Both the position numbers and the translations under genes were made by a program. Below are positions 2,567 to 25,746 of a stretch of DNA of 25,746 nt, in pieces (position 1 is the stretch's first letter; every line of letters starts with the position of its first letter). The notes under the pieces are model-generated. The model was not told the DNA's origin. It worked only from the letters and a program-made list of their open reading frames with translations, and searched no databases. The stretch is from an uncultured virus (IMG/VR IMGVR_UViG_3300024518_000036) (lineage: Duplodnaviria > Heunggongvirae > Uroviricota > Caudoviricetes), in the IMG/VR virus record IMGVR_UViG_3300024518_000036. One strand, written 5' to 3'.

Positions 2567-3068
2567 CGAGACCGAAGACCCCCGCATCCAGAACATCATC
2601 GAGTTCTTCACGATGGCTGCGAAGGAGACCTTTGAGCCCACCGAGGCTCTGTCACTGGCTCACGAGGAGCTTCAAGAAGTCGTGGTGGCCGGGATTCTCC
2701 GTACGCTGAAACCTCTGCTGGCCGTTGCTGACGAGGGGGCGCACGGGGAAGCCGCGAAAGGGCTGATGAAGAAGCTGCACGAGCTGACGGAGCGCCGGCC
2801 GGAGCTGAAGAAGCACTTCAAGGAGGTGGGACAACAGGCCTTTGGGCGTGGGGTCGGCCACCAGACCTGGGATTCGTCTCCGGTCTCAGTAGAACAGAAG
2901 GCGCTCCGTCAGGCACAGCCGGGGATGACACCGCTGCAGCAGGGAGTAGCTGCTCACCCCTATCTGGAGCGCTACTACTCCAACCCGCGGCCGGTTTCGG
3001 TGTGGCCGCCGATGTTCCTCTGGCCGGATGGCGACGAGATCATCGGGGCGGAGTACGAGGACGCATAG
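2559..3068 (+). CDS. hypothetical protein
   Basis: 169-aa ORF overlapping the previous stop, in the same operon-like run. Confidence 0.65.
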   Translation: MSDETEDPRIQNIIEFFTMAAKETFEPTEALSLAHEELQEVVVAGILRTLKPLLAVADEGAHGEAAKGLMKKLHELTERRPELKKHFKEVGQQAFGRGVGHQTWDSSPVSVEQKALRQAQPGMTPLQQGVAAHPYLERYYSNPRPVSVWPPMFLWPDGDEIIGAEYEDA

Positions 3069-3078
3069 GAGGATCTCA

Positions 3079-6000: not shown

Positions 6001-6246
6001 CTGCGTCAGTGGGAAGGGCGCTTCACCCGTCTGGGGCAGACCCGTCCGGTCGTCATCTACTACGTCATCTGCGAAGACAGCGTTGATGAACACATCGCTT
6101 CCATCCTCATCGACAAGCTTCCTGCCGTCCAGAAAGTAGTCAAAGACGCGGAGTTGGCAGAGGCGAGGGACGTTCTTGCGGGCTTCGACCCGAATCAGAC
6201 GGATGACGAGTTCGTAGATTCGATCCTCGCCGACTTGGATTTCTGA
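3079..6246 (+). CDS. SNF2/SWI2-family (superfamily 2) helicase/ATPase, intein-containing
   Basis: RBS AGGAGG before ATG 3079. After intein removal: motif I HPTG-SGKT, Ia VIVVTRAA, II VIFDESH, III TATP, IV KVVIFT, V GESLN, VI QWEGRFTRLGQ. Confidence 0.9.
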   Translation: MRTNNWTIMAPHARLAFGLEGEDTLRNFGDNPLSAFHTELQKIAGVKLKKGLWNVPLNAISVVDTLQKQFPGVSTMAAAWVTEPTRSVDWEIVECVLRERGEVQEWVLDGFLTAYQEESIAFGWTGAGIHYWHPTGCLTGDTKLKINRGGKTFDIDLKTLVRRVQGEWGGKGKQWDLSIPTFVQCMVDGHVRLNRLVDAFYTGEKEVHGVIVDDPNDGPGHPIYRIWATKDHRFATPSGFKRLENLSVGDEVMVRGSQKKGKKKPKTSYKQVGVRHHPHAVVASIQGWTETLKRRYRRGYVERSYRVPEHRLVMEAVLNEMALDEWLKICRKAPTCEGMFSAYPNVLGPMGHTPFTVLDPRTHAVHHKNGDHKDNRSENLEVLTHEEHWARHGREETWKNVVADVVPVKIKTIVPVGKDHTYDLTMESPHNNYVANGFVVHNSGKTLTGLLCSLSVPGPVIVVTRAAARLQYAREIERFLNVRAYVVRPESELTGQIRVRGESRFEWLARHRRGPVRVNGESYREWQARQPKAGPVRVNGESYGEWQSRNKGRFSREEMKLNWSAYKEEHGLDNPGMSRDGMKAAWESHKIEHGLDNPGMSKAELSDAWKAHKEAYGIDPPRRLPDYLEECRDAARRPFIVVGWEALTANIGRLAALHPGVVIFDESHRGKSTKRWDVVHLPELPDDVVEAREALGEYTADARSKDGFIKDTGEEGWKMFVPVLNTAASAAHLARAAKKRICTTATPVKDRVRDLWSQLDLAEPNAWGNATSFQDRYCDRKPGIYGGYDTKGSSNLDELNLRLGNVAHILAYEETHRQLPAKRRQSVYIAPEDQCRPASGFPAELREAKKRGANAVLEVRLAQAASKKRKAVLDMVIDHVSSKHKVVIFTGRKRDCDQLGEDMRKAVGKLKQPATVWSAHGEQSVKHRQNIIDEYMAHPGPCVLVGTGHAFGESLNIHDTDAAFFVMLPYTPGQLRQWEGRFTRLGQTRPVVIYYVICEDSVDEHIASILIDKLPAVQKVVKDAELAEARDVLAGFDPNQTDDEFVDSILADLDF
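3487..4404 (+). mobile_element. intein (306 aa) with HNH homing endonuclease, inserted in helicase Walker A
   Basis: Begins CLTGDT, block B ATKDHRF, ends TYDLTM..NNYVANGFVVHN followed by Ser(+1). Internal HNH: EHRLVME...VHHKNGDHKDNRSENLEVL. Confidence 0.92.
4567..4941 (+). repeat. intragenic peptide repeats (3x RVxGESxxEW then 3x SxxxxxxxWxxxKxxxGxDxP)
   Basis: DNA repeats with a 60-nt period (4621/4681), and a 26-nt identical repeat CACGGGCTCGACAACCCTGGGATGTC at 4786 and 4855. Confidence 0.9.
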
Positions 6247-6564: not shown

Positions 6565-6912
6565 ATGGCCTACTGTGGCGAAAGAGACGAGGAGGGTTGG
6601 TACTGCGTGCTCAAGAGCGGGCATGAGGGTCAGCACCTTTCCCTCGACAACCAACGCATCTGGAAAGGAACTCCGGGATTCCCTGTTCGCTGGGCGGCGA
6701 AGAAGGAGCCTGAGCTTCCTCGCGAACAGACGGACGAGCTGAACCCGACGCTGACGCAGGCTGAGTACAAGAGAGCGAGGATCATGAACAAGCAGACGCT
6801 GAAAGGAGCAGGAGTCCCAACCGGGGACCTGTGTCAGTGCGGCGGTCTGCTTGTTCAGATGGGGGCGTGTAAGCAATGCACCACGTGCGGTGATGGAGGG
6901 AGTTGCGGGTGA
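6565..6912 (+). CDS. small Cys/His-rich protein with C-terminal zinc ribbon resembling the NrdJ C-terminus
   Basis: ATG 1 nt after the previous stop. N-terminal C-x9-CVLKSGHEGQH and C-terminal TGDLCQCGGLLVQMGACKQCTTCGDGGSCG. Confidence 0.65.
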   Translation: MAYCGERDEEGWYCVLKSGHEGQHLSLDNQRIWKGTPGFPVRWAAKKEPELPREQTDELNPTLTQAEYKRARIMNKQTLKGAGVPTGDLCQCGGLLVQMGACKQCTTCGDGGSCG

Positions 6913-6988
6913 CCAAAATATGTCCGAGCCGCTTCGCGCAGAGTGTGTTCCCGACATAGAGTATTCCCTTCGGAAAGGAGCTTCCGCA

Positions 6989-7891
6989 ATGGGTGGTGAC
7001 GAGAAGATCATCTACACGGGGCCGTCGTCTCGGGGATGGCATCGACTTCAGCAGGCCGCGGAGTGCTTGCAGAAGTATGCTTGGGCCTACGAGGCTCCGA
7101 AAAGGAAGGGGGACGGGCTGAAGAGCCCTGCGCTGGCCAAGGGGTCGCTGATTCACCTGGCCTTGGCTCAGCACTACGCGAGGATGCGTGCCGCGCAGAA
7201 GAACCCGGTCAAGCAGCTCGGCGCCCTGGACGACGACACGCCGGAGTCGTGGTGCGAGCCGGAAGAAGCGGTTCGCTTGATCGCGAAGCTTGAAGGCATC
7301 AGTGACCAGATTGCTGACATCGCCATCCAGTCCTACCGTGACTACGTCCTTGCTCACCCTTACGAGGTGGAGTTTCAGGAGATGCGGATCGTGGAGGTCG
7401 AGGACCTGATGAGCGTCAAGATCGCTGGCAAGTACCTGCTTACAGGACGGCTGGATCTTGTCTACGAAGACCTCGGAGGCCGCATCTGGGTCATGGACCA
7501 TAAAACCACTGGGCGTCTGACGGCTCGACACAAGCAGTTCTACGCCGTCAGCGGTCAGCTCCTGGGGTACGCGCACATGGCCCGGGAGAAGTACGGAGAC
7601 CGTATGGCAGGGCTCAAGGTCAACCTCATTCAGCATGGGGACACACCGAAGTTCGAGCGCATCACACTGTCACGGAGCCCCAACCTGGAGACGAGGTTCG
7701 AGAGCATCGTGGTGGACATCGAGGAATCCATCGAACGGATGCAAGCGGCGGGGCGGGATTTCGATGACTGGCCAAAGGGTGTCAACGAGCTGACTTGCTA
7801 CCATCGTTATGGTGCCTGCGAGTTTATTGATCTGTGCCGTCACGGCTATGGGGCGAAGAAGGCGGGTAACTGGACTTGGAAGGACTTGTAG
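6989..7891 (+). CDS. PD-(D/E)XK nuclease, Cas4/AddB/RecB-like, probable 4Fe-4S iron staple
   Basis: RBS AAAGGAG. Motifs GSLIH, VEVE, GRLDLV, VMDHKT, QLLGY. One N-terminal Cys plus C-terminal C-x6-C-x5-C. Confidence 0.88.
   Translation: MGGDEKIIYTGPSSRGWHRLQQAAECLQKYAWAYEAPKRKGDGLKSPALAKGSLIHLALAQHYARMRAAQKNPVKQLGALDDDTPESWCEPEEAVRLIAKLEGISDQIADIAIQSYRDYVLAHPYEVEFQEMRIVEVEDLMSVKIAGKYLLTGRLDLVYEDLGGRIWVMDHKTTGRLTARHKQFYAVSGQLLGYAHMAREKYGDRMAGLKVNLIQHGDTPKFERITLSRSPNLETRFESIVVDIEESIERMQAAGRDFDDWPKGVNELTCYHRYGACEFIDLCRHGYGAKKAGNWTWKDL
7844..7891 (+). repeat. 48-bp direct repeat, copy 1 (3' end of nuclease gene)
   Basis: 45/48 identical to 8581-8628; both encode GYGAKKAGNWTWKDL*. Confidence 0.95.
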
Positions 7892-7944: not shown

Positions 7945-8628
7945 ATGCCAAACTACGGGAAGTTGTCCGAAGAGACTGTCGTGGCGATGAGGGAAGGCTA
8001 CGCGAAGGGCAAGCTCCTTTCTGCCATCGGGAAGGAGCACGGGATTCACCCGTCTCAGGTCAGTCGCATCGTGCGAGGCAAGAGCTACAAGCAGTTCGGT
8101 GGTCCCGTCGCGGAGACGACGAAGAAGAAGGCCGATGAGGATTGGTATGAGGTTGACAAGGCTACGGGTTGCTGGGTTTGGCAGGGCAGAACACTCCGTG
8201 GGTACGGCATCTACGCCACTGGCTACGACGCGGGGTACAGTCAGTTGGCACATCGGTACTTCTACGAGACTCGGGTTGGACCTGTGCCGGAAGGACTGGA
8301 AATCGACCACGTTTGCCAGAACAAGGCGTGCGTGAACCCAGGGCACCTTGAGGCAGTCACGGCGCAAGAGAACACCCACCGAGGCCCGAACACAAAGTTG
8401 GACTGGAAGAAGGTGCGGAAGCTGCGGTCTCTCTACGCTAAGGGTCGTACCTCACAGGCCCAGATCGCTCGGATGTTCAGGGTCAGCCGCGCTACGATCT
8501 GTGCTGTGGTGATGAACAAGAACTGGAAGGACCCAGACTACACGCCTCCCGCCTTTGGTAAGGGGCGGCGGACTGACGTGGGCTATGGGGCCAAGAAGGC
8601 AGGAAACTGGACTTGGAAGGACTTGTAG
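7945..8628 (+). CDS. free-standing HNH (homing) endonuclease with N- and C-terminal HTH domains
   Basis: AGGAG RBS. GCWVWQG..GYG..AHRYFYE..EIDHVCQNKACVNPGHLEAVTAQEN. Two HTH-like segments (KLSEETV..SQVSRIVRGKSYK and KLDWKKV..RATICAVVMNKNWK). Confidence 0.9.
   Translation: MPNYGKLSEETVVAMREGYAKGKLLSAIGKEHGIHPSQVSRIVRGKSYKQFGGPVAETTKKKADEDWYEVDKATGCWVWQGRTLRGYGIYATGYDAGYSQLAHRYFYETRVGPVPEGLEIDHVCQNKACVNPGHLEAVTAQENTHRGPNTKLDWKKVRKLRSLYAKGRTSQAQIARMFRVSRATICAVVMNKNWKDPDYTPPAFGKGRRTDVGYGAKKAGNWTWKDL
8581..8628 (+). repeat. 48-bp direct repeat, copy 2 (3' end of HNH gene)
   Basis: Differs from copy 1 only at three synonymous third positions. Confidence 0.95.
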
Positions 8629-10434: not shown

Positions 10435-10788
10435 ATGATTATTGGTACACCCAAGAGTCTGGAAGAGTTTCGTGTCTTTTCACGCCCCGAGGTTGACGAG
10501 CTGATCAACGGTGCTGAGGCGTTGGCCACCAGCGGCGCTCCCTTAGAACTCCCTGCGACGGTGATGACCGTTACGCAGGTGTCTCGCATCGCATTGACTG
10601 TGAAGCACTACCGCCAAGTAGTGCAGAATCTCGTCGAGTCCGTTGACGACGCCCTGGACGAAGACGTCATGCTGTTGCCAGCCCGGGTTATGAATGTGGT
10701 CGCGGAAGCCGAGGCTCTTCTCAATATCGAACCACCCAAAGAGCAGAAGGTTGTCGTTCCAAAGGGACGCATTGTTCTGCCAAAATAG
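10435..10788 (+). CDS. hypothetical protein
   Basis: GGAG RBS before ATG 10435; 117 aa. Confidence 0.7.
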   Translation: MIIGTPKSLEEFRVFSRPEVDELINGAEALATSGAPLELPATVMTVTQVSRIALTVKHYRQVVQNLVESVDDALDEDVMLLPARVMNVVAEAEALLNIEPPKEQKVVVPKGRIVLPK

Positions 10789-10797
10789 GAGTCCATC

Positions 10798-11091
10798 ATG
10801 GGCAGAGCTGAAGTCCCCGAAGTCCCCGAAGTCGAAGTCCCCGAAGTCGAAGTCCCCGAAGTCATAGAGGCGGAGGACTCCGACGAGGTGGATCTCGTTG
10901 AGGCGGTGCTTTTTCACGGAAAGCGAATCGAGAGCATGGACCGCACCCTGTTCTTCGGTCTCCGAGGTCTGGTGATGCTTCTTGACCACGTGGAGACCGT
11001 AGTGAACCCCCTCACCCAGCCCGAGGAGAAGGCAGCTGCCTTGCAGCAGCTCCAGGAGACGATCGCTGGAATGAAGGAATCGTTGAAGTGA
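10798..11091 (+). CDS. hypothetical protein with N-terminal EVP repeats
   Basis: AGGAG RBS; 97 aa. Confidence 0.7.
   Translation: MGRAEVPEVPEVEVPEVEVPEVIEAEDSDEVDLVEAVLFHGKRIESMDRTLFFGLRGLVMLLDHVETVVNPLTQPEEKAAALQQLQETIAGMKESLK
10810..10863 (+). repeat. tandem repeat GAAGTC(CCC) x7
   Basis: Units of 9 and 6 nt, all in frame, encoding EVPEVPEVEVPEVEVPEV. Confidence 0.9.
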
Positions 11092-11095
11092 AGCT

Positions 11096-13840
11096 GTGAG
11101 CTACGACCCTCGGGCTCACGGAGCGAAATGTGACCAGTGTCCGCTGAAGGGCAACACTGTCGTGCCTCCGGAGTCCGGTCCTCACGACCTGGAAATCCTT
11201 GCTGGGAAGGCAGTCGCTGTTGTCGGAGAAGCGCCAGGAGAGCAGGAAGAGCGGCAGGGGCGTCCCTTCGTTGGGCCTTCCGGTGACGAACTGAACAAGG
11301 CGCTTGTCAAGGCTTCTCTACGACGTCGTAACATTCACGTCACGAACGTGCTCCTCTGCCGTCCTCCGGGGAACAAGCTCAAGGACCTGCTGACGCGGAT
11401 CAACAAGTACAACAAGGCGCAGGAGAAACTTCACAGGGAGAAGGTGAAGGAGGCCGGGAAAGCTGGAGAACCTCCACCCACGGGCAAGCCTGACTTCATC
11501 CCGTCGCCCATCGACTGCTGTGCTCCCCGCTTCCAGTCGGAGATCGAGAACTTCAAGAACTTCATTACTCTCGGCAAGACAGCGACCAACGCGGTTTCTG
11601 GCGTCACTGCGAGCATCCTGTCGGTTCGGGGCGGGCTGATGGAGTTGGATGCTACGGAGCGGACTCCAGAGCGGAAGGTCATGCCGACCATCCACCCGGC
11701 CTTCTGCCTTCGTATGCCCCGGTGGTTCCACGTCTTTCGCAACGACGTCTTTAAGGCAGCCCGATGGTTCCGCGGCGAGGCGAAGTGGGTGCCTCCCAAA
11801 GTCACGTACAACCCAGACGCTGGGACTCTGAGCAAGTTCCTTTCTCGGGACACCATCTTCACCTTCGACATCGAGACCGACGGGATTGAGTGCTTGACGG
11901 CGAAGATTCGCTGTCTTGCCATCGGAGACGAAAACGACGTGATGGTGATGGGCTTTCTCGGGAAGAACGGACTTACCAAGTTCTACAGCCCGCTGGAAGA
12001 GATCCCGGTGAAGACAGTCCTCTTCGACTTCTTCGAGGACGAGTCCAAGGTCAAGGCGGGCCACAACGCCGGTTACTACGACAAGATCGTGCTCCAGCAG
12101 CAGTGGGGCATCGACCCGAAGCCAATTGTCGATACCATCCTCTTGCACAGGTGTGTCGAGTCTGAGCTACCGCACGGCCTGGCCTACGTGGGCTCGATGT
12201 ACACCGAAGCGCCTGCTTGGAAAACGGATAGAGAAGGGCAAAAGCTCGCTTTCGACTCCGAATCGGACGAGCAACTTCACGAGTACTGTGCCAATGACGT
12301 GGCTGTAACGGCTCGCGTAATGCCGCCCCTCGTGGACCAGGTGAAGCTTCGCAATCAGGTTGGCGTCTGGCAGCTAGATCAGCGAATCCAGTCGGTTTGT
12401 GCTGATATGCACACGGTCGGGATGTTCGTGAATCAGGGTGCTCGGCTGGAGAAAGAAAAGGAGCTGCTGGGCCGTCGGTTCGAGCTGCTCGCAGATATTC
12501 GGGACCGGCTTGCTCGTCCTCAGTTCAACCCGGGCTCGGTCTATCAGGTGCGGGATGTGCTCTTCGCGGACTGGCAGCTTCAGCCGCCTCTGGAAGATGA
12601 GGACCGCTACACGGCCTCGGGAGATCCATCTACCGCTGACCTTGTGCTTCGGTCTTTACTGACCGACCGGTCAGTTCCTGCTGAGCAGCGCGATGTCATC
12701 AAGCTCTTTCGATACTACAGGAAGGTCCAGAAGGTTCTTGGCACCTATGTCGTGAAGCTACGTCCGTGGAACATGGAAGCCGACCTTGGTTGGGACGATG
12801 ATGACGACTGGGTGGATCGGGAAACCCGCGAGCGGTACGGCGAGGTCAAGAGGGGCATCGTGGACCCGCGAACCGGCCGGATGCATCCTGGCTACAACGC
12901 CCACGTTGCCGTGACGGGCCGGCTGTCCAGCTCTAAGCCCATCAACGCTCAGAACTTCCCGAAGCTGATGAGAGGCATGGTTGTTGCTGCTCCAGGCCAC
13001 GTCCTCGTCGGCGCGGACATGGACCAGCTTGAGCTGCGAATTGCAGCAGCCCGCTGGTACGTCAAGCTCTATCTACGTGCTTTTGAAGAGGGCAAGGATC
13101 CTCATTCAATGACAGCCTACTCCGTCTTCGGAGACCGATTCCTCGCGGCTGCCGGTCTTACCTCCGAACAGTTCTCTCGGCCCGGTCCGCTTGTGGGGAC
13201 TTCCTACGTGAACGGGAAGTTCGAGGGCACAGGAGAGGACAAGAAGATGCGAGACCTCTCGAAAGCGGTTCAGTACGCTTCCCAGTACAAGGCCACAGTG
13301 GAGACAGTGCACAAGCTCATTTGCAAGACCGAGGTTCCGGCTCGGGATGCGAACGGTGACAGAGTAGCTGACGGCACGACAGATCTTCCCTACGCCCTCC
13401 TCCCGCTGCGCAAGGTGCGCAAGATGCGTGATAACTGGCTGAAAGGAGCGCCGGAGTTCGAGGCCGGTTGGGACACCGAGATTGCGGCTTTCCGCGATCG
13501 AGGGTTCATCGAAGAGCCGGTTACGGGCCGTCGCCGGGACTTCCTAGATGGCGAGAACCCCAACGAAATCGTGAACTTCCCGATTCAAGCTTCGGCTGCT
13601 GGGCTAATGAACCGAGCCATCCTACAGCTTGCTGAAGAGATCCCCCTGAACAAGTGGGGTCCAGGCACCGGCATCATCAACCAGTGCCACGATTCCATCG
13701 TCGTTGAGTGCCCTGAAGACCAAGCCTCCTACGTGGCTGGGCTTCTAGAAGAGTGCATGAACCAGACGCACCCCGATCTGCCCGGAGTCACTTTTACGGC
13801 TTCAGCAACCACCGGCCATACTTGGCAGCAAGTCGGCTAA
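11096..13840 (+). CDS. polA: family A DNA polymerase with N-terminal family-4 uracil-DNA glycosylase-like domain and 3'-5' exonuclease (SPO1-type architecture)
   Basis: UDG: CDQCPL, GEAPG..E..GRPFVGPSG, TNVLLCRPP, HPA. Exonuclease: FDIET, HNAGYYD, YCAND. Polymerase: TGRLSS, ADMDQLELR, K..QY...Y, NFPIQ, HD. Confidence 0.93.
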   Translation: MSYDPRAHGAKCDQCPLKGNTVVPPESGPHDLEILAGKAVAVVGEAPGEQEERQGRPFVGPSGDELNKALVKASLRRRNIHVTNVLLCRPPGNKLKDLLTRINKYNKAQEKLHREKVKEAGKAGEPPPTGKPDFIPSPIDCCAPRFQSEIENFKNFITLGKTATNAVSGVTASILSVRGGLMELDATERTPERKVMPTIHPAFCLRMPRWFHVFRNDVFKAARWFRGEAKWVPPKVTYNPDAGTLSKFLSRDTIFTFDIETDGIECLTAKIRCLAIGDENDVMVMGFLGKNGLTKFYSPLEEIPVKTVLFDFFEDESKVKAGHNAGYYDKIVLQQQWGIDPKPIVDTILLHRCVESELPHGLAYVGSMYTEAPAWKTDREGQKLAFDSESDEQLHEYCANDVAVTARVMPPLVDQVKLRNQVGVWQLDQRIQSVCADMHTVGMFVNQGARLEKEKELLGRRFELLADIRDRLARPQFNPGSVYQVRDVLFADWQLQPPLEDEDRYTASGDPSTADLVLRSLLTDRSVPAEQRDVIKLFRYYRKVQKVLGTYVVKLRPWNMEADLGWDDDDDWVDRETRERYGEVKRGIVDPRTGRMHPGYNAHVAVTGRLSSSKPINAQNFPKLMRGMVVAAPGHVLVGADMDQLELRIAAARWYVKLYLRAFEEGKDPHSMTAYSVFGDRFLAAAGLTSEQFSRPGPLVGTSYVNGKFEGTGEDKKMRDLSKAVQYASQYKATVETVHKLICKTEVPARDANGDRVADGTTDLPYALLPLRKVRKMRDNWLKGAPEFEAGWDTEIAAFRDRGFIEEPVTGRRRDFLDGENPNEIVNFPIQASAAGLMNRAILQLAEEIPLNKWGPGTGIINQCHDSIVVECPEDQASYVAGLLEECMNQTHPDLPGVTFTASATTGHTWQQVG

Positions 13841-16515: not shown

Positions 16516-17364
16516 ATGGCTGCGCCTATCACCCCCATTTCCCAGCTTCCCTTCCTGAGCTTCACCGTGGCTGGGATCACCACTGCCGCGGTAGTGGAGC
16601 TGGACCCCCAACCGTTCAGCAACACGAAGGAGATCATCCTCCTCAACCTGGGCGCTGCTGCTGCTGACCAGATGTACATTCAGGTGGCCAACGTGGGGGC
16701 TACGCAGGCATCGGGAGACATCATCATCACTGCTGTCCCAAGTGCAGGAGATACCATCGTCATCGGATTGGCAACGCTCACAGTCGTAGCCGGTCCAGCC
16801 GGAGTGGATCAGGTGTCCATAGACACACCACCCTTGACGGGTTCGGCGACCCTCCAGGCGCAGCGAGTTCAGCTTCGTACTTACGAGGCGCTCATCGATC
16901 CGGCCAACACCTTTCTTACCATGAACGTCGACATTTTCCTGGTTGACCCGAGCGACCTATTCAACCCAGGGCTCCCCGTTTATGAAAGCCCCATTCGTAT
17001 CGTTTCCACGCTCGTAGGGACTCTCGGCAATGCGACCGCTCTTTCGGACACCGGAGTAGGATGGGCGACCTTCGAGCCGGCACGACAAACGGCTGCCAGC
17101 CCAGGGAACTTGGCTGGGGGCGTGAACGCCCTTCCTCTTGTCCCCACAGTGACCGCAGCGAACAGCACCGTCCTTCCTGCCGGGGCGGCCCTTACTCTGT
17201 CCGTCGGTTCGGAGGGCAACCGCAACCCCTTGGCAACCCTGGCATTTTGGGCTGCCAACCCGGGCAGCAAGCTGGGCATCGTGGTGGTTATGGCTGCCGG
17301 TGGTGCTGCCTCTGACCTCAACGTCACCTACGTCCAGAATCGTGGCTATCCAGACGGGGTCTGA
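16516..17364 (+). CDS. hypothetical protein, possible virion structural protein
   Basis: Ala/Thr/Val/Gly-rich, beta-type composition. ASGDIIITAVPSAGDTIVIG resembles repeats in phage structural proteins. Function is inferred. Confidence 0.6.
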   Translation: MAAPITPISQLPFLSFTVAGITTAAVVELDPQPFSNTKEIILLNLGAAAADQMYIQVANVGATQASGDIIITAVPSAGDTIVIGLATLTVVAGPAGVDQVSIDTPPLTGSATLQAQRVQLRTYEALIDPANTFLTMNVDIFLVDPSDLFNPGLPVYESPIRIVSTLVGTLGNATALSDTGVGWATFEPARQTAASPGNLAGGVNALPLVPTVTAANSTVLPAGAALTLSVGSEGNRNPLATLAFWAANPGSKLGIVVVMAAGGAASDLNVTYVQNRGYPDGV

Positions 17365-17371
17365 TGCCAGC

Positions 17372-17380
17372 GTAGCACCC
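17372..17380 (+). promoter_or_regulatory. conserved upstream motif GTAGCACCC
   Basis: Intergenic, upstream of 17440; overlaps the inverted repeat ACCCGAAG (17377)/CTTCGGGT (17403). Confidence 0.4.
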
Positions 17381-17439
17381 GAAGATACTTCACCCGCCCC
17401 CGCTTCGGGTAAGTTGGCAAGAGCAACAGGCGGGAAGTC

Positions 17440-17748
17440 ATGGCGGAAAAAGACGGAAAGGAGCTGGAAGCTCTGAAGACGGGCATGGGTCAACTGATGT
17501 CGATCGACAGCTCGGGGTTCAGTTCTCGTCAGTTCATCATGGCCATGTTCATCTTGCTCTCGGGCAAGGGGTTTCTGTTCTACCTCGTCTGGATGGGCTC
17601 TTCGGACTCGGTGCTCATGGCTGCCATTGGGATGGTCTCTGCCGGAGAAACAGCAGCTTCAGGGTTCTGGGCTTACCGGGACACGAAGACAAAAACGAAG
17701 AAGATGGAGGAGGCGCGATTGGCTATGGGAAGCAACGGCAATGGGTAA
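17440..17748 (+). CDS. small membrane protein, holin-like
   Basis: 102 aa with two hydrophobic segments (FIMAMFILLSGKGFLFYLVWM; VLMAAIGMVSAG) and a basic C-terminal tail. Confidence 0.55.
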   Translation: MAEKDGKELEALKTGMGQLMSIDSSGFSSRQFIMAMFILLSGKGFLFYLVWMGSSDSVLMAAIGMVSAGETAASGFWAYRDTKTKTKKMEEARLAMGSNGNG

Positions 17749-18058
17749 AAAGTACCTCATTCCACTCCTGGTCGGTGTCGGCCTCCTCGTTTTGGTCCTC
17801 GTTGCTGGAGCCCTGCTGTTCAATGGCCAAGAAGAGGGAGCAGGGGGGCTGGCGGCGCTCGCTGCCGTCATAGCTGAGGTAGCTCGTAGGCGACGCGCAG
17901 CAGCAAGAAAGGAGCTGGACGAGGTTGCCGAAGAGGCCGAGGAAGACATTACGCAAGCAGAAGACCTCCAGGCAAGCGTGGATGAAGCCGGCGAAGCGAT
18001 AGACGCTGTTGTCGAAGAAACTACGCTGGATGATCTCGTTGACGAGGAAAACGAGTGA
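17741..18058 (+). CDS. membrane-anchored protein with acidic coiled coil
   Basis: N-terminal TM segment YLIPLLVGVGLLVLVLVAGALLF; overlaps both neighbours. Confidence 0.65.
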   Translation: MGKKYLIPLLVGVGLLVLVLVAGALLFNGQEEGAGGLAALAAVIAEVARRRRAAARKELDEVAEEAEEDITQAEDLQASVDEAGEAIDAVVEETTLDDLVDEENE

Positions 18059-18477
18059 TCCTCCTTCTCCTCACAGCCCTGGCCTTTGCAGACGACGAGA
18101 TTCACGCCGTCAACGAGGGGGAAACCGTCGAGGTCTCTGGGCCTGCTGTCTGGATGACTGAAGACCGATTCCGGCTCTACGTGGCCGACTCTCGGAAGCT
18201 ACCGGTCTGCACCGAGGCGCTGGACAAGGCCATCGACTTGAGCATCGAGGCCAACGAGCGGGCTTTGAAGGCGCGCGAGATCGCAATCGCGGAGTTCGAG
18301 GAAGATGAAGCTCTCATCGACGAGCAGGTTCAGACCATCGCTGAGTTGACCGTGAGGGTCGACGATTTGGCGGACAAGGTGACTCGGGTGCGGGCTCAGC
18401 GGAACGTGGCCTGGGGCATTTCTGGCGGGTTCATTGCAGCTTCGGTAGCGGCAACGGTCCTTACACTCAGCAACTAG
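18055..18477 (+). CDS. exported coiled-coil protein with C-terminal TM segment (spanin-like topology)
   Basis: GTGA overlap, signal-like MILLLLTALAFA, coiled coil, C-terminal VAWGISGGFIAASVAATVLTL. Confidence 0.65.
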   Translation: MILLLLTALAFADDEIHAVNEGETVEVSGPAVWMTEDRFRLYVADSRKLPVCTEALDKAIDLSIEANERALKAREIAIAEFEEDEALIDEQVQTIAELTVRVDDLADKVTRVRAQRNVAWGISGGFIAASVAATVLTLSN

Positions 18478-19464: not shown

Positions 19465-21657
19465 TCAGCCGGTCTTGAGCACGTGGACGAATTCGTCGAT
19501 GATGGCAGCCACTTCGGTCGGTCCCATCCCCCGCACGTGAACGAAGCGGGCGATGGCCTTACAGGTAGGACAGCTGTCACCTTCCTTAATGGGGTGGTAG
19601 CTCCTTTCAGCCTCACTTTTCAGTATGAGGTTGCCTCGGCGGTTGAGCCGCCACTTCTGTCCGATGAGGTCCTGAACTGCACGGCTGGTGCTTGGGTGCC
19701 GAACGCCTGAGACGTCCATGCGTCCCAAGAGCCTCTCGGGTTGGGTACGCACGACTTTGTACCCCATGTGCATCCGGATGAGGTCTGCCTTGGCCTGGCC
19801 AGCCTCCCCTGCTGCCTCCATATTGGCCAGGTGGTCATCCAGCCACTTACGACGGGCGTCGTGGAGAGCTTCCGTTCCCTCACCGCGCCTGTACTCCACC
19901 TGTTCTTCTGCACTCATTGGGTGTGTGTGCCAGAGGTCGGCAGCATCCAAGCTCGAAAGACCGAGGGCCGCCTTGTCTTCCGTGCGGTGCTTGTTTCTCA
20001 CTTCTCGGGCGAGGGTCTCGATGCTTTCGTTGAACCCAGCAGCCGTCTCGTCGAAGCGGTCAGTGAAGACCAGCTCACCGCTAGATGATCGGGTGACGAA
20101 CCCCAGATTCTTTCCTGGTCCCGTGAGCCAGTTCTTCGCGACTTCGCCTATGCGATCCTCTTGGAGGCCGAGACTTCTCATGAGGCGCCAAATCCTAGCG
20201 CTGTAGGCTTTCCGCAGGGAGGTTTCGGCGCGGTCTCGCAGCTTCTTCTCCCTCTCTGCCCACTTCTGGGCATCACCAAATCCCGGCGTCGCCCTGCGGA
20301 GCTGGATCGTGGCCGCTGCCATTGCACCGGCTCGGCCCTTCAGCACTTGGGCTTCGATATGGCGCGGTACATACCGATCCTTCCCGATGCCAGGAAGCTC
20401 CACCTCAATCCGCTGCCCTCTGATCTTGATGTGGGGCTCGGGATCGTCAGCGGTTCCCAGAAACGGCTGCAGCATCGTGTTCAGCACCTGAAGGCCTGAC
20501 GGGTAGTAACGGCTGTTCCCGTCCGGCCAGGTCTTGTTGTCGGCCGCCTGGAGCTTTCGTTTCAGGGCTTCAACTTGCTTCTTCAGTCCCTTTCTGGCGT
20601 CGGGGTGGACCATCGCAATCCGGGGCTCTATCTGACGCAGTTCCTGATCTAGCCTGTAGGCAAGTTGAAGATCTTCCTTTCCGGAGTTGAAGGCTTCAAC
20701 AGCTTTCTGGTGCTGCCCCTCGTAAGTCCAGCCTGCAATGGAGTGCCACTCCCAGTTCAGTGGATCCAGCCCGTGCTGTGCTCTCAGCTCTTGCTTGTCG
20801 GTATGGTACGCTTTCGCGAGGAACCTCTTGACCGTGCCCGCCTGGGCCAACGCGACGTCTCGGGGACCGTCAGGCCGAATGAAGTTCGGCACGACCTTCT
20901 TGTCTTCTTCTTCTTCCTCTTCCTCTTTGGGTCGAGGAGCTGCTCTGACTGGAGCTGCTCTGACTGGTCGAAGCTTGCGCTTCTTGCGCTTCTTCTTCTT
21001 GCGTACTTCGGGCTCCGGCCGGCGCTCGTCAAACTCACGTTCTTCCAAGACAGCATTGAGGAGCCTTACAACGGACAGCGGTGGCATATTGAGCTTAAAG
21101 GCCAGGTCCTGAATACCTGATGCCCTCGCGGTGAATCGAGTGGGCAGCGTCGGAAGACTGTTGATGAACTCCCGAGCAGCTCCTTTCCTCTTCTCGTCTG
21201 CTTCGGCGAGCTGGGCGTTCCTCAGCTTCCGTGCCAGAACCTGGATTTCCCGTTCCAGCCAGATGATGCCAGCGTCCACCTCTGCACTTCGAGGCTGGCT
21301 CCTCAACTCCTGGAGCGACTCTTTCGCCTCGCTGATCTGAAGGGACAGCGTGGCGGCTCGACCCGATGGGTTCTTCTTCGCCCCCCCGAGGCGGCTCAGG
21401 ACTTCCAGTTCGGTCAGCGGGCGCAGGACGTGCGTGGGGTACTCAACGTCTTGGTACTTGTAGCGAGACAGCACTTCTCCATCGAGAATCATCCAACGCA
21501 GGCGCACAGTCATCGGCGCGTCAGTCGCCGGCCCAAATGGTACCAGGGGCCCGCTACGGATGATCAGGGCAAGATCATCGCTGTGGTCTCGCCACGCGAC
21601 ATAAGTTCCGACCGGAAGAGGGTTCCCAGTTGTCCATGGCGTCCAAGAGGAGTTCAT
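19465..21657 (-). CDS. large hypothetical protein (730 aa) with basic/acidic low-complexity linker
   Basis: Long ORF with RKKKKRKKRKLRPVRAAPVRAAPRPKEEEEEEDKK, coiled coils and a terminal CPTC. Confidence 0.75.
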   Translation of the reverse strand: MNSSWTPWTTGNPLPVGTYVAWRDHSDDLALIIRSGPLVPFGPATDAPMTVRLRWMILDGEVLSRYKYQDVEYPTHVLRPLTELEVLSRLGGAKKNPSGRAATLSLQISEAKESLQELRSQPRSAEVDAGIIWLEREIQVLARKLRNAQLAEADEKRKGAAREFINSLPTLPTRFTARASGIQDLAFKLNMPPLSVVRLLNAVLEEREFDERRPEPEVRKKKKRKKRKLRPVRAAPVRAAPRPKEEEEEEEDKKVVPNFIRPDGPRDVALAQAGTVKRFLAKAYHTDKQELRAQHGLDPLNWEWHSIAGWTYEGQHQKAVEAFNSGKEDLQLAYRLDQELRQIEPRIAMVHPDARKGLKKQVEALKRKLQAADNKTWPDGNSRYYPSGLQVLNTMLQPFLGTADDPEPHIKIRGQRIEVELPGIGKDRYVPRHIEAQVLKGRAGAMAAATIQLRRATPGFGDAQKWAEREKKLRDRAETSLRKAYSARIWRLMRSLGLQEDRIGEVAKNWLTGPGKNLGFVTRSSSGELVFTDRFDETAAGFNESIETLAREVRNKHRTEDKAALGLSSLDAADLWHTHPMSAEEQVEYRRGEGTEALHDARRKWLDDHLANMEAAGEAGQAKADLIRMHMGYKVVRTQPERLLGRMDVSGVRHPSTSRAVQDLIGQKWRLNRRGNLILKSEAERSYHPIKEGDSCPTCKAIARFVHVRGMGPTEVAAIIDEFVHVLKTG

Positions 21658-21733: not shown

Positions 21734-21955
21734 ACGAACCAGAGCAACCCGTTACCAACAACACGCGCAGGGGTCGCGCACTCGTGCACGCGAGGAGATC
21801 AGCGAAAAGCATGGTTCCAGCGTGCTTTCCGCAGTGTTACTGAAATAATGTATTTCCGTAACTCTCCCCAAGGGTCGGTCGGTCTCCACGGGGGATCGCG
21901 TGAAGGATGAGTCGAAAACGACGGCTAATCGCCTCAACACCCCTTTGGGGTGCTT

Positions 21956-21964
21956 GTAGCACCC
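21956..21964 (+). promoter_or_regulatory. conserved upstream motif GTAGCACCC
   Basis: Upstream of 22035; right arm of the hairpin GGGTGCT-TGT-AGCACCC; TAGAAT lies downstream. Confidence 0.4.
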
Positions 21965-22034
21965 TACGACTCCCGATCTCCTTTCTCCCCTCCGGGGAAA
22001 AGGCTAGAATGGTGGTCAGGAAAGGAGCTGACTC

Positions 22035-22562
22035 ATGGCAGGCCTCACCTATCCCCCCTCAGTGTCTGGGTATTCTTTCCCCTCGGGCGGTGGTGGCGGC
22101 GGTGCAGTTGAAGACATCCAGATCCAGTACGCGCATGGGGATCGAAATGTCGAGCAAACGCTCACGTTGGTCAATATCCTCGTCGGAGCAGGGCTGCCTT
22201 CGCAAATGCTGACCGAGCAGCTCAACACCTTCTACTGGAACTTTAGAGCGCTCGACGGCACCGAGTACCTACAGGTTGCATTTACGGAGACCGTGCGCCT
22301 GGAGGGGATCGTGTACGAGCAGTCCGACGGATCGGATCAGGGGATCTGGTCGATAGAGACTCTTTCAGGCGGGATTTACACGGCTCAGGCGGCCAACGTG
22401 CAGATGGGCCTCGGCACCGCGAGTTCCCTGGTGTGGGCAAACACCTGGCTCATCGACGCAGCAAATCAAGCGGATTGTGACGGATACCGGATCCGGGGCG
22501 TGTCAGGATCGATCACCAATGGACCCTGGCGAAACAATCTTCGCGCCTATGTGACCAAGTAA
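22035..22562 (+). CDS. hypothetical protein (beta-rich, possible virion protein)
   Basis: Preceded by GGAAAGGAGCTGACTC, identical to the RBS region of 23536; poly-Gly linker. Confidence 0.7.
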   Translation: MAGLTYPPSVSGYSFPSGGGGGGAVEDIQIQYAHGDRNVEQTLTLVNILVGAGLPSQMLTEQLNTFYWNFRALDGTEYLQVAFTETVRLEGIVYEQSDGSDQGIWSIETLSGGIYTAQAANVQMGLGTASSLVWANTWLIDAANQADCDGYRIRGVSGSITNGPWRNNLRAYVTK

Positions 22563-22840
22563 TGGCACGCACCAAAATAGACAGCGGCTGGCTCTGGACG
22601 TGCGACATCGCCGGATGCGACGAGGAGACCACGACCGGACCGACCGAGGGGTGTCCTGCGACTTGGCGCTTTGTACCGCGTCTGAACGAGGGCGGCCCGC
22701 CGACGTGGACGGCGTGCCCCGATCATGTGGCGCCCCTTGACGCGCATGCTGAGGTCAGGATCGCGTGGCGGATCGCTGCCGGCGACGATCCCGAGGGTTA
22801 TGCCATTTCCAATCCGATGGCTGATCCGCCTTGGGTGTAA
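22562..22840 (+). CDS. small putative Zn-binding protein
   Basis: TAATG overlap; TCDIAGC...CP...CPDH. Confidence 0.65.
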   Translation: MARTKIDSGWLWTCDIAGCDEETTTGPTEGCPATWRFVPRLNEGGPPTWTACPDHVAPLDAHAEVRIAWRIAAGDDPEGYAISNPMADPPWV

Positions 22841-22844
22841 ACTT

Positions 22845-23023
22845 TGACCCCAACATCGCCCGCGACGCCATTCACCTAGCGAAAGGAGCTGATCTCATGG
22901 CCGGTAGACCTGGACCTACGTACAAAGAGCTGATGGAGATGGCGCGCAAGTACCAGGTTCGGCTGAGCCCTTCTTCGGCTCCAGCTTCTGCTCCAGCTTC
23001 TGTTGCGCCTCGGTCGACTCCTG
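22845..23023 (+). repeat. cassette junction/leader repeat, copy 1
   Basis: 22845-22873 is identical to 23484-23512; RBS and leader similarity continues to 23023. Confidence 0.9.
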
Positions 23024-23532
23024 TTGCGACTGGCCTCACTGTGGTCGGCGAAGCAGATAAGGATGGCAACAGCGTCGTCGAGTTCCGAGTACGTATGGCT
23101 GCTTCCTCACCTCTGTCTCTGCTGGTTTACAAGACTTCGATCCGGGACCCGCGGCACGCCTCAGCGTCGGCGACATCGGAGGTCATCGTGCTGGCAGATC
23201 AAGGGCCCCGTTCATTCGACGGCCCATTTGGTGCCGGGATAGGCATGGCCTTGCTCCACGCTGGAGGGGGGTTTTTCGGTCCAGGCGCCAAATACCGATG
23301 GCACGATTTGGGCGACCTCGCGCCCGCGCCCCAAGACACGGCCGAAGGGCTCCAGGACCTGTTGGATCAGTACCGCTACGGTCACCACGGGGAGTACGGC
23401 CAACATAAGAGCGTCGGCCGCGAGCAAACCGCTCCGGTCCTTCGTTGGGTTTCGGAAGCGGTGGCCGGGAAGTGGCCTGTTGGTGACCCCAACATCGCCC
23501 GCGACGCCATTCGATTAGCGGAAAGGAGCTGA
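22897..23532 (+). CDS. leader-family protein A (shared leader lacking the Arg block, plus shared C-terminal domain)
   Basis: AAAGGAG RBS; MAGRPGPTYKELMEMARKYQVRLSPS; C-terminal domain homologous to protein B. Confidence 0.75.
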   Translation: MAGRPGPTYKELMEMARKYQVRLSPSSAPASAPASVAPRSTPVATGLTVVGEADKDGNSVVEFRVRMAASSPLSLLVYKTSIRDPRHASASATSEVIVLADQGPRSFDGPFGAGIGMALLHAGGGFFGPGAKYRWHDLGDLAPAPQDTAEGLQDLLDQYRYGHHGEYGQHKSVGREQTAPVLRWVSEAVAGKWPVGDPNIARDAIRLAERS

Positions 23533-23713
23533 CTCATGGCCGGTAGACCTCGTAGGCGCGCACGTCGAAGAAACGCGCGGAAGAACAGGGCTCGAAGGAA
23601 TGCGAAGCCTACATATGAAGAGCTGATGGAGAGGGCTCGCAAGTACCAGGTTCGGCTGAGCCCTTCGGGAGAGCCGACGGCTCCAGCTTCTGTTGCGCCT
23701 CGGTCAACTCCTG
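23484..23713 (+). repeat. cassette junction/leader repeat, copy 2
   Basis: Gene A end + RBS + full Arg-rich leader of gene B. Confidence 0.9.
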
Positions 23714-24999
23714 CTCCTGCGCCAAGCTCGGCGACACCGGGGGTCTATCGACCCGACTCCGCAGAAGAGAAGGTACGGTGGAGCGAGCAGATAGCGAAAG
23801 AAGCAGGTGCGCTTCTCACAGGCATGGGTCTCTACACGACCGTTGGCAGTGAGAAACTGGGCAATGTCCAGGATTGGAGCCCAGATCAATGGAAAAACAG
23901 ACCTGTCAGGGGGACTGTGAAGTTCTTGTTTTCTCCGGCCAAGCTTGCCTACGTTCAGGGACCGAACCTGCACGGCGACGATTGTCCAGACTACCCGATA
24001 CCTGTAAAGCACATTGGCGGGGCCGACGTGTGGATCTCAGGGAAGTTGTGGTTTTCCTCATCAACAAAACGCCAGCTGAAGGTGGAGATCAACATGAGGG
24101 CGGGGGCTCAACGCCCGTTTCCCCCGGGGGCATGGGGAACCCTAACAGAAGCCTACGGAATGGATGGCGGGAGAAAAGCTCTTCATCGCGTGAACCAGAG
24201 TTTACAGACACGCCAGAAGACGGCCGGGGTAGAGTGCTCTTGGCGGCGTAATGTTATTTGCACCCGAGAGCGGTGGGGTGCCCTCCACGGATCCTATGGG
24301 GGTCCTCACGAGTACGCTTTGGCCGAGCACGGGGACGATACGACCATCCTCCGACGACGCTTGCTTCTTTTTTGCCAGCAAGTCGAACACGCTGTTTCTG
24401 TTTCGGCCCTCTCCCCTCTCGTGAAGGAGTTGGATCAACTCTATCTCGGCATCACGGCGGCCGTAGCCGAAGCGAAGAAAGGGACTACTGGCGCTGTTCC
24501 CGTTGGGCTTACTGAGATCGGTAAGAACAGTGATAGCCACGAGTTCGATTCGGGCGACCACATGGAGGACGAAGTCATCGAGTTCCAGGTCGATTTGAAG
24601 GGAGCTGCTTCCTCACCCCTGTATCTGCTGATCTACACGAAAAGCGCGGGCGGCGGCATGGGAGGAGGCACTGTCAATCTCGTCTTGTTGACGGATAAAG
24701 GAAAACCGATCGGCATGGCCTTGTTCGGTTACTCGGGCGAAGGTCACCCATATCTGGCTGACTTAGTGCCTCGGGTCAGCCAAGACACGGAATCTGGCCT
24801 CGCTGTCCTGGCGGGTCTCAGGAAGTCCGATTGGCGGGTTGGAGATTTGAGGGGCTACGACAACCGCTTTGCTCCACGACACCTTTCGGGGATCCTCCAC
24901 TGGGTTTCGGAGGCGTTGGCAGGGAAGTGGCCTGTTGTTGCTACCGGCGACGCCAACCGTGCCGTTCGATTAGCTGCGGGAGCCCCTGATGGCAGGTAG
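23536..24999 (+). CDS. leader-family protein B (Arg-rich leader, unique middle, shared C-terminal domain)
   Basis: 487 aa; MAGRPRRRARRRNARKNRARRNAKPTYEELMERARKYQVRLSPS. Confidence 0.8.
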   Translation: MAGRPRRRARRRNARKNRARRNAKPTYEELMERARKYQVRLSPSGEPTAPASVAPRSTPAPAPSSATPGVYRPDSAEEKVRWSEQIAKEAGALLTGMGLYTTVGSEKLGNVQDWSPDQWKNRPVRGTVKFLFSPAKLAYVQGPNLHGDDCPDYPIPVKHIGGADVWISGKLWFSSSTKRQLKVEINMRAGAQRPFPPGAWGTLTEAYGMDGGRKALHRVNQSLQTRQKTAGVECSWRRNVICTRERWGALHGSYGGPHEYALAEHGDDTTILRRRLLLFCQQVEHAVSVSALSPLVKELDQLYLGITAAVAEAKKGTTGAVPVGLTEIGKNSDSHEFDSGDHMEDEVIEFQVDLKGAASSPLYLLIYTKSAGGGMGGGTVNLVLLTDKGKPIGMALFGYSGEGHPYLADLVPRVSQDTESGLAVLAGLRKSDWRVGDLRGYDNRFAPRHLSGILHWVSEALAGKWPVVATGDANRAVRLAAGAPDGR

Positions 25000-25117
25000 A
25001 CCTCGTAGGCGAGCACGTCGAAGAAACGCGCGGAAGAACGCCGCGAAGCCTACGTACAAAGAGCTGATGGAGATGGCTCAACAGTACCAGGTTCGGCTGA
25101 GTCCTTCGGGAGAGCCG
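24901..25117 (+). repeat. cassette junction/leader repeat, copy 3
   Basis: TGGGTTTCGGA..GGGAAGTGGCCTGTTG gene end as in gene A, followed by the leader of gene C. Confidence 0.85.
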
Positions 25118-25597
25118 GAGCCGGAGCCGAAGCCAACGCCGAAGCCCAAGCCGGAGCCGAAGCCGCCCCTGGTGTCGACGTATGTGACGTTCCCCAATGC
25201 GCAGGGCCAAGCCCGCGCCCTCACGGTGCCGTCCCACCCCCGCGAGGGGTGGCCTGTCGGGTATAGGGGCTTGCGGGCTGACGATGATCCTACTCGGGGA
25301 TCCCACGATCTAAACAGACGGGGGCTTGGCCCCGGCCAAGCGTGGGTCTGGGGGCCCTTTCCTGGGGTAGATGACCTCTTTGGCATTCACCGGCAGTACA
25401 TCTCCTACGATGGAGACAACAACTACGTCGAGCACCACCATGGGGTCAGAAGGTTCCCCGGTCTGAGCAGAGAGGAAGTCGTAGCGAAGGTCAAGAGAGA
25501 AACGCGCGATCAGTTTGAGGTGACCGAGATCCAAGGCATCAGCGAGACCCGCAGGACGAAGTATTCAGATCCCACACTCGCGTATTGGTCAAGGTGA
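24989..25597 (+). CDS. leader-family protein C (Arg-rich leader, PEPK linker, unrelated body)
   Basis: 202 aa; MAGRPRRRARRRNARKNAAKPTYKELMEMAQQYQVRLSPSGEPEPEPKPTPKPKPEPKP. Confidence 0.8.
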   Translation: MAGRPRRRARRRNARKNAAKPTYKELMEMAQQYQVRLSPSGEPEPEPKPTPKPKPEPKPPLVSTYVTFPNAQGQARALTVPSHPREGWPVGYRGLRADDDPTRGSHDLNRRGLGPGQAWVWGPFPGVDDLFGIHRQYISYDGDNNYVEHHHGVRRFPGLSREEVVAKVKRETRDQFEVTEIQGISETRRTKYSDPTLAYWSR

Positions 25598-25609
25598 CTT
25601 AATGGGGAC

Positions 25610-25674
25610 AAAGGAGCTGACTCATGGCCGGTAGACCTCGACGACGCGCACGTCGAAGAAACGCGCGGAAGAAC
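25610..25674 (+). repeat. leader repeat, copy 4
   Basis: AAAGGAGCTGACTCATGGCCGGTAGACCTCG...CGTCGAAGAAACGCGCGGAAGAAC. Confidence 0.9.
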
Positions 25675-25746
25675 CCAGCTTTGTTGCCCCGACCGGGGGT
25701 GCACCTCCAGTGGAAGGGGGGAAGGTCCGGAAGGGCCCTTTGGGAA
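25624..25746 (+). CDS. leader-family protein D, 3'-truncated by window edge
   Basis: Not in the ORF track. My translation: MAGRPRRRARRRNARKNPALLPRPGVHLQWKGGRSGRALWE, open to the end; same RBS as gene B. Confidence 0.8.
   Translation, partial: MAGRPRRRARRRNARKNPALLPRPGVHLQWKGGRSGRALWE

Follow-up and report, generated by a model that had tools for sequence, protein, structure and literature searches.

What can a short protein start, shared by neighbouring genes, be for when it stands in front of bodies that are otherwise unlike? The question is raised by the end of a 25,746-nucleotide (nt) stretch of DNA from an uncultured marine phage (IMG/VR record IMGVR_UViG_3300024518_000036; this whole stretch is called the window), where four consecutive genes start with the residues MAGRP and carry parts of a common N-terminal leader. 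A sequence-only reading of this locus had proposed that the leader is an addressing tag, for capsid loading, DNA co-packaging or ejection, on interchangeable cargo. Following a computational analysis, we read the genes as a lineage-private accessory array in which the shared leader would act both as a common address tag and as a site of cassette exchange, and we give this statement as a whole a probability of about 0.4. The existence of a recombining modular leader family is, by itself, very probable, and modular leader-cargo recombination is well supported.

The genes lie in a + strand unit that occupies the last 3.7 kb of the window. This unit begins past a divergent gap of 377 nt (22034 being its last position and 21658 its first), with three minus-strand open reading frames (ORFs) on the other side. 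As seen in the ORF listing and the translations, MAGRP is the start of gene A (22897..23532, + strand, 211 aa), gene B (23536..24999, + strand, 487 aa), gene C (24989..25597, + strand, 202 aa) and gene D (25624..25746, + strand), the last being cut by the end of the window with 41 aa visible. Behind MAGRP stand two blocks, an Arg-rich block R and a block H. Gene A has H at 22915-22974, a Pro/Ala/Ser spacer at 22975-23022 and a body at 23023-23529 of the type that it shares with B. In gene B, R (23551-23586) is followed by the extension RARRNA (23587-23604), H (23608-23667), a Pro-rich spacer (about 23668-23739), an orphan middle region and the A/B-type C-terminal domain (24496-24975). Gene C combines R (25004-25039), H (25049-25108) and an EP/KP spacer (25109-25168) with an unrelated body, and in gene D, R (25639-25674) is followed by 24 residues without H. 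The genes are tightly packed: A and B are 3 nt apart, B and C overlap by 11 nt, and the 26 nt between C and D hold only a ribosome-binding site.

The two blocks account for the leader as the sequence-only reading had described it, with H only in A, both blocks in B and C, R only in D and MAGRP in all four; its further statements, that the blocks are near-identical at the DNA level and that a Pro-rich linker is found in A, B and C, also agree with the data. The R block, RRRARRRNARKN, comes immediately past MAGRP, has basic residues at 8 of its 12 positions, and is identical between B, C and D at 46-49 of 51 nt over codons 1-17. For the H block, PTYxELMExAxxYQVRLSPS, the identity between A, B and C ranges from 54/66 to 64/72 nt. 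After H, genes A and B have an APASVAPRSTP-like spacer, and C has an EP/KP run. Altogether the leader measures about 25-47 aa, and its repeats make up families D1, D2 and D7 in a repeat search of the window. We considered a Sec or Tat signal peptide and rejected it, since no hydrophobic core of that type follows the basic block, which continues with KPTYKELMEMARKYQVRLSPS and the Pro-rich spacer. Neither did the leader match a characterised domain in Pfam, PHROGs, NCBIfam or PADLOC.

The way in which the blocks vary bears on whether the peptide itself matters. Four codon columns of the R block vary between B, C and D, each of them synonymously and none with a change of amino acid; in the H block, five columns are synonymous-only and six are amino-acid-changing, the changes falling in its flanks, these being small counts from copies that are not independent. 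The H core ELME.A..YQVRLSPS is invariant in A, B, C and a protein from outside the window, P0004. Since R changes only synonymously and the H core does not change, the pattern argues that selection acts on the leader peptide and that the leader would be more than a patch of homology.

We then compared what stands behind the leader. A and B have only a C-terminal domain of about 165 aa in common (35% identity, E 4e-16), and the middle region of B, of about 250 aa, is without a relative. In an all-against-all BLASTP of nine leaderless pieces, the body of A matched the C-terminal domain of B (E 2e-16) and the body of P0004 matched the protein P0008 (E 2e-57), all remaining pairs having E values of 0.39 or more; the middle region of B and the body of C matched nothing. 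The body of C is thus unrelated to those of A and B at this level, as had been suggested. The broader proposal of a modular leader on interchangeable bodies stands as regards the modularity of the leader, the presence of unrelated bodies and an exchange of partners (P0004/P0008, see below), and has to be narrowed for A and B, whose C-terminal domains are related. No model of Pfam, PHROGs, NCBIfam or PADLOC matched any body or the leader, and these four collections revealed no toxin family among the bodies, which leaves room for orphan toxins. The EP/KP spacer gave faint compositional matches to TonB (E 0.048; 13.5 bits, where the cut-off is 315) and, likewise far under the cut-off, to Trypan_PARP (E 0.0073). 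Structural comparison added little. Four PDB sequence searches returned nothing below E 0.068. In the AlphaFold2 model of B, helices were placed at residues 5-21 and 27-41, with a predicted local distance difference test score (pLDDT) of 54-60 or lower, residues 42-75 had no regular structure and low pLDDT, and the A/B domain was modelled as a beta meander (pLDDT 62-74). A wide VIA-align search with this model gave a best Z of 6.6 from helices only, which is uninformative. The ESM Atlas entries had pLDDT values of 0.41 (B) and 0.45 (C), with feature scores of 0.80-0.81 for B, no usable feature match for C, and a TM score by query of 0.30 or less in all structure rows. Complex prediction with two leader copies scored 0.04 and gave no verdict.

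The evidence for shuffling comes from the DNA of the array itself and from related strains. Between A and B, amino-acid identity is 18/22 in the H block and 11/12 in the spacer, and 65/142 aligned positions in the body. Among the identical residues, synonymous differences were found in 5 of 34 leader codons versus 26 of 65 body codons (Fisher p 0.012). The Pro-rich spacer APASVAPRSTP, where strong selection is not expected, is still identical at 33 of 36 nt, and this points to recent exchange rather than constraint. The repeat unit also runs across gene borders. A region of 40 nt upstream of A (22845..22884, + strand), which lies outside any leader gene and reads DPNIARDAIHLAKGA, shares 90% identity with the true 3' end of A (23484-23523) in the repeat search, and is a relic of an A/B-type 3' coding end; the unit of repetition therefore spans the end of a body, the ribosome-binding site and the next leader. 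The ribosome-binding and start region AAAGGAGCTGACTCATGGC, of 19 nt, is present in three exact copies, one at 22021..22039 (+ strand) in front of the first gene of the unit and the others at 23522-23540 and 25610-25628. None was found in 100 shuffles, which excludes chance. The first gene (22035..22562, + strand, 175 aa, no family found) starts MAGLTY; it has the same start region and MAG as the leader genes, without an R or H block. Between it and A lies a small Cys-containing ORF of 92 aa (22562..22840, + strand), again with no family found.

Outside the window, P0004 (173 aa) has a 26-aa leader identical to that of A, no spacer, and then a fourth kind of body, absent from the window. This body is 63% identical to P0008, where it stands behind a different N-terminus and a KP-rich spacer; one body behind two N-termini implies that cargo and leader recombine. 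P0007 is a variant of C (201/202). As P0007 and P0004 are each recorded from a single NCBI contig of 2443 nt, we infer that they are neighbours on one contig, in which case a related strain has another cassette in front of C. Variant joints were also recorded in other seawater runs. In run X4, one contig of 105 nt (depth 2.3) leads from the 3' end of A to a shortened R block that continues as in D, and in run X6, one contig of 266 nt has a B-like start behind unlike upstream sequence. Another joint of run X6, 23352>24898, would create an A-B fusion within the homologous domains of the two genes; its shorter side has only 21 letters, and we did not rely on it.

We next asked how widely the family is distributed. 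A profile built from all four leaders, run against 1.84 billion representative proteins, retrieved A, B, C and one outside protein, P0004; its two weakest matches, P0005 and P0006, were repetitive junk and were discarded. A word-indexed search covering 5.8 billion clusters led to the same four true matches, and a search with protein C found only itself at an E value of 0.001 or less, among 349 candidates. At the DNA level, the exact R block had no match in viral_contigs. The leader/body alignment A2 gave 74, 51 and 69 pattern matches in metagenome_contigs, genome_contigs and viral_contigs, respectively, none of which was confirmed, and no relatives were found for P0008 in metagenome_contigs or for P0004 in genome_contigs. 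In the phage collection, positions 22000-25746 had no DNA match and B no tblastn match. The sequence-only reading had expected a system whose attached domains could be tabulated across viral metagenomes; this expectation failed, with the leader in only one protein beyond the window and in none of the three contig collections. In the libraries searched, the family thus appears private to one uncultured marine phage lineage. The rest of the related IMG/VR contig L009, the best contig, was scanned as well, and no comparable array was found. That contig carries an ORF of 227 aa (6594-7277) which starts MARPKGKAKKH and has a basic N-terminus, a Pro/Ala-rich stretch and a Cys/His cluster; its N-terminus is similar in style, and it did not match A2, the sole profile run there.

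How could these observations fit together? In the reading that we favour, tandem duplication and recombination would have set one modular N-terminal leader, in which MAGRP may be followed by an Arg-rich arm R, a short helix block H or both, and in most cases by a Pro-rich spacer, before at least four unrelated bodies. The leader would bring the different bodies to one common destination, with H docking on a shared partner, R binding nucleic acid and the Pro-rich spacer keeping the body free. The most likely destination would be the head interior, beside the DNA, from where the bodies would enter the host with the genome, and the repeated leader DNA would offer the homology for cassette exchange between strains. 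The suggestion of an address or docking tag is drawn from the anatomy, in which a conserved peptide at the N-terminus is held by an extended Pro-rich spacer away from bodies that can be exchanged, and from analogy with the capsid-targeting signals of T4 internal proteins and P1 DarB. Taken alone, an address to the virion or to DNA is possible at somewhat less than even odds. The full version, a two-part delivery tag in a phage that is not T4-like, combining an Arg-rich DNA-binding arm, a docking helix and a Pro-rich spacer with head loading, co-injection and a tag DNA that doubles as recombination site, is rather doubtful.

Several observations weigh against the idea of an address. The window holds no virion, scaffold or protease genes, hence no known receptor for a tag, and the array adjoins a replication module, not head genes. 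MAGRP is the sole piece common to all members, D being without H, A without R and P0004 without the Pro-rich spacer. The hydrophobic moment of the H block is matched by 15-18% of shuffles, so that H is not more amphipathic than shuffled sequence, and the AlphaFold2 models have low confidence, with a mean pLDDT of 41.6 for B and 44.6 for P0004. In the internal proteins of T4, the tag directly follows the initiator Met, whereas here it stands after MAGRP with or without 12-18 basic residues. Moreover, five IMG/VR phage records with a related polymerase (51-60% identity) had no match to the family; in this wider group the array would appear dispensable, whatever its role.

One alternative, that the array is an assembly artefact or non-coding, could draw on two results. 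The short Logan contigs of four runs all break at repeat edges, so they give the gene order no independent confirmation, and A, B and C have low codon scores (-0.01 to 0.07 per codon) compared with the polymerase and helicase of the window (0.30-0.33). Low codon scores are, however, common in fast-changing accessory genes, and in A, B and C the annotated frame scored higher than the other five; the 41 visible codons of D are too few for a decision. All three indels seen in other samples are multiples of three (3, 3 and 6 nt long), and the open frame is kept at every junction behind the ribosome-binding site. A, B and C are each recorded from three contigs, the longest of 150,535 nt. The stretch is carried by seawater and marine metagenomes (23 runs from 19 studies, four of these runs containing at least half of the words; none of the 23 listed runs is RNA). 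In run X3, which comes from a sample carrying no possible-source flag, 96% of the sampled words were present, and its eight listed pieces covered 21900-25746 with no differences, save short gaps at repeat edges. We regard an artefact as extremely unlikely. A different objection takes the genes as real and denies the leader a common protein function, the shared 5' ends being leftovers of recent tandem duplication and gene conversion that serve translation start and cassette recombination, much like the promoter and stem-loop cassettes in hyperplastic regions of T4-type phages. This is rather improbable. It would account for a repeat unit that crosses gene borders from an A/B-type 3' end over the ribosome-binding site into the leader, for the relic upstream of A, for the start region heading the leaderless gene at 22035, for the low synonymous divergence of the leader with its near-identical A and B spacers, for the contigs of other runs that break or branch at repeat edges, and for a leader confined to one lineage. 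T4-type phages are described as shuffling at repeated cassettes (PMC2839356, PMC4122927). What this account has difficulty with is the purely synonymous variation of R in B, C and D, which points to selection on the peptide, and the invariant H core in A, B, C and P0004. There is also no sign of a promoter or stem-loop element that the repeats could preserve: a scan against shuffles found one promoter-like site (mean of shuffles 1.0) and seven terminator-like sites (mean 4.1, sd 2.3), and the four start regions, when folded, had z-scores of 0.08 to 0.59, at the level of chance.

The remaining alternatives keep a function for the leader and move its place of action. Arginine-rich motifs of the lambda N kind bind nucleic acid, and the leader could act within the infected cell, its Arg-rich arm tethering effectors to ribosomes, phage nucleic acid or the nucleoid of the host. 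The strongly basic R block directly behind MAGRP would suit such a role, as would the position of the array beside early-type replication genes, at the head of its own + strand unit after the divergent gap; other basic tracts occur in the window, at the C-terminus of the ORF 69-392 and in a 730-aa minus-strand ORF. However, A and P0004 keep H without R, so nucleic-acid binding cannot be the shared function. Rfam and tRNA scans were blank and placed no RNA family in the window, the start regions have no structure above chance, and no target site is known, which leaves this role unlikely. Tail spikes and fibres have conserved N-terminal adaptors and variable C-terminal domains, and by analogy the leader might anchor interchangeable binding or decoration domains on the outside of the particle. 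The plan of a conserved N-terminus, an extended Pro-rich spacer and a variable body agrees with this, and so do the faint compositional match of the EP/KP spacer to the TonB rod and the beta meander modelled for the A/B domain. The bodies are small, though, and have no receptor-binding, Ig-like or fibre family match in Pfam or PHROGs, there are no tail or capsid genes nearby, and a strongly basic N-terminus is unusual for an external anchor. An outside anchor is the less credible of these two, and quite improbable.

The surroundings of the array are those of a phage replication module. A SNF2-type helicase (3028-6246) is split by an intein that carries an HNH domain (Pfam Intein_splicing and HNH_3), and within its gene lie 60- and 69-nt tandem repeats (4618-4878) whose translation consists of repeated peptide units. 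It is followed by a PD-(D/E)XK nuclease (6851-7891) and an HNH endonuclease (7945-8628), two genes with common 48-nt ends (7844-7891 and 8581-8628) that are 94% identical, both proteins ending in GYGAKKAGNWTWKDL. The HNH gene has the appearance of a homing-endonuclease gene whose insertion copied the 3' end of the nuclease gene that it targeted. The module also includes an AAA_24 ATPase and an SMC-like ATPase. The family A DNA polymerase is encoded by an ORF of 914 aa (11096-13840), with an N-terminal domain of the uracil-DNA-glycosylase superfamily and a 3'-5' exonuclease. Its IMG/VR relatives (51-60% identity) keep the full length. One of the five records was checked for gene order and is syntenic: in L008, the order is kept from the polymerase to a homologue of the 730-aa minus-strand ORF. 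Among named phages, the best match of the polymerase was Virus Rctr197k (27.7% identity), which had no match to A2. In the gap that separates the polymerase gene from the gene ending at 10788, GAAGTCCCC-like units are arrayed in imperfect tandem with 9- and 15-nt spacing (10810-10883), a possible iteron or origin-like region.

Other parts of the window are occupied by orphan genes. The group at 16516-18477 consists of a protein of 282 aa rich in Ala, Gly, Thr and Val (no family found; its counterpart in L008 is an ORF of 397 aa) and of three small ORFs with hydrophobic stretches behind it, and could represent a cluster of structural or lysis genes within the replication region. The 730-aa ORF on the minus strand (19465-21657), also an orphan, has a Lys/Arg run followed by a Glu run and a C-terminal CPTC...FVHV...G motif. 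Its C-terminal part is conserved in an ORF of 295 aa of L008 (20510-21397), no family was found, and a search in viral_contigs gave no relative. At the other end of the window, the ORF 69-392 (107 aa) has an Arg-rich C-terminal tail, ARKNRNRRRKPRRSARKRRSRWR, which recalls the R block; no DNA repeat ties it to the leaders.

If the reading as an address tag proved true, the phage would represent an independent invention of the route by which T4 and P1 carry varied proteins into the host with their DNA, and the mechanism of cargo swapping would be visible in an uncultured marine phage. It would also provide a short portable sequence for protein-packaging trials and help to pick out injected accessory proteins from the orphan genes of phages. 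For the present, with a family restricted to one lineage and bodies none of which has a recognisable function, the array is a clear example of genes shuffled at a shared leader rather than a new system of broad reach.

Among known systems, the closest in plan is the capsid-targeting sequence (CTS) of the T4 internal proteins IPI, IPII and IPIII, likewise a short shared N-terminal peptide on small proteins that, with the exception of A and the C-terminal domain of B in our array, are otherwise unrelated. The T4 prohead protease removes the tag at L/I-x-E, and an L-M-E triplet is present in the H block. In the T4 record, the translated IPIII and IPII begin MKTYQEFIAE and IPI begins MKTFKEF; the start of H, PTYKELMEMA, is identical to the former at 4 of 10 positions without gaps. 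When all six frames of the window are scanned, the three leaders are the only places with the pattern T[YF][QKE]E[FL]; as this motif was chosen after seeing both sequences, it is a lead and not a test. There is no detectable homology to the CTS, and the leader differs from it in its two parts, with an Arg-rich arm and then a Pro-rich spacer. The genes are in tandem here, while ipI of T4 lies apart from ipII and ipIII, and the phage has a family A polymerase whose relatives are not T4-like. In PMC3012670 and PMC9026906, the internal proteins of T-even phages are read as an arms-race kit, the set of which varies between related phages. For DarB, which belongs to the Dar anti-restriction system of P1, PMC9024508 describes the first 30 residues as sufficient for capsid targeting and for bringing a reporter into the head. 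The resemblance is that an N-terminal stretch of 30 residues or fewer brings the cargo into the head in DarB; the difference is that DarB is one very large protein and ours a family of small ones.

Polymorphic toxins and the MuF-toxin fusions of temperate phages also combine a conserved N-terminal trafficking part with variable C-terminal domains swapped by recombination, and PMC5576092 and PMC3482391 present the MuF-toxin family as a head protein in its N-terminal part with variable C-terminal domains. Here, the leader has about 45 aa and no folded trafficking or MuF domain, with no Pfam match, there are no small immunity genes between A, B, C and D, and no body matches a toxin family. Encapsulation peptides of microcompartments and encapsulins are short amphipathic helices joined to the cargo by a flexible linker; a linker is present in our leader, and its helix is modelled at low confidence, with a moment reached by 15-18% of shuffles. 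In T4-type phages, promoter/stem-loop (PeSL) cassettes mediate modular shuffling (PMC2839356, PMC4122927). The array is like them in its short repeated DNA at gene borders, in its region of orphan genes and in gene replacement between close relatives, and unlike them in that the repeat is mostly coding and has no promoter, terminator or stem-loop signal above chance.

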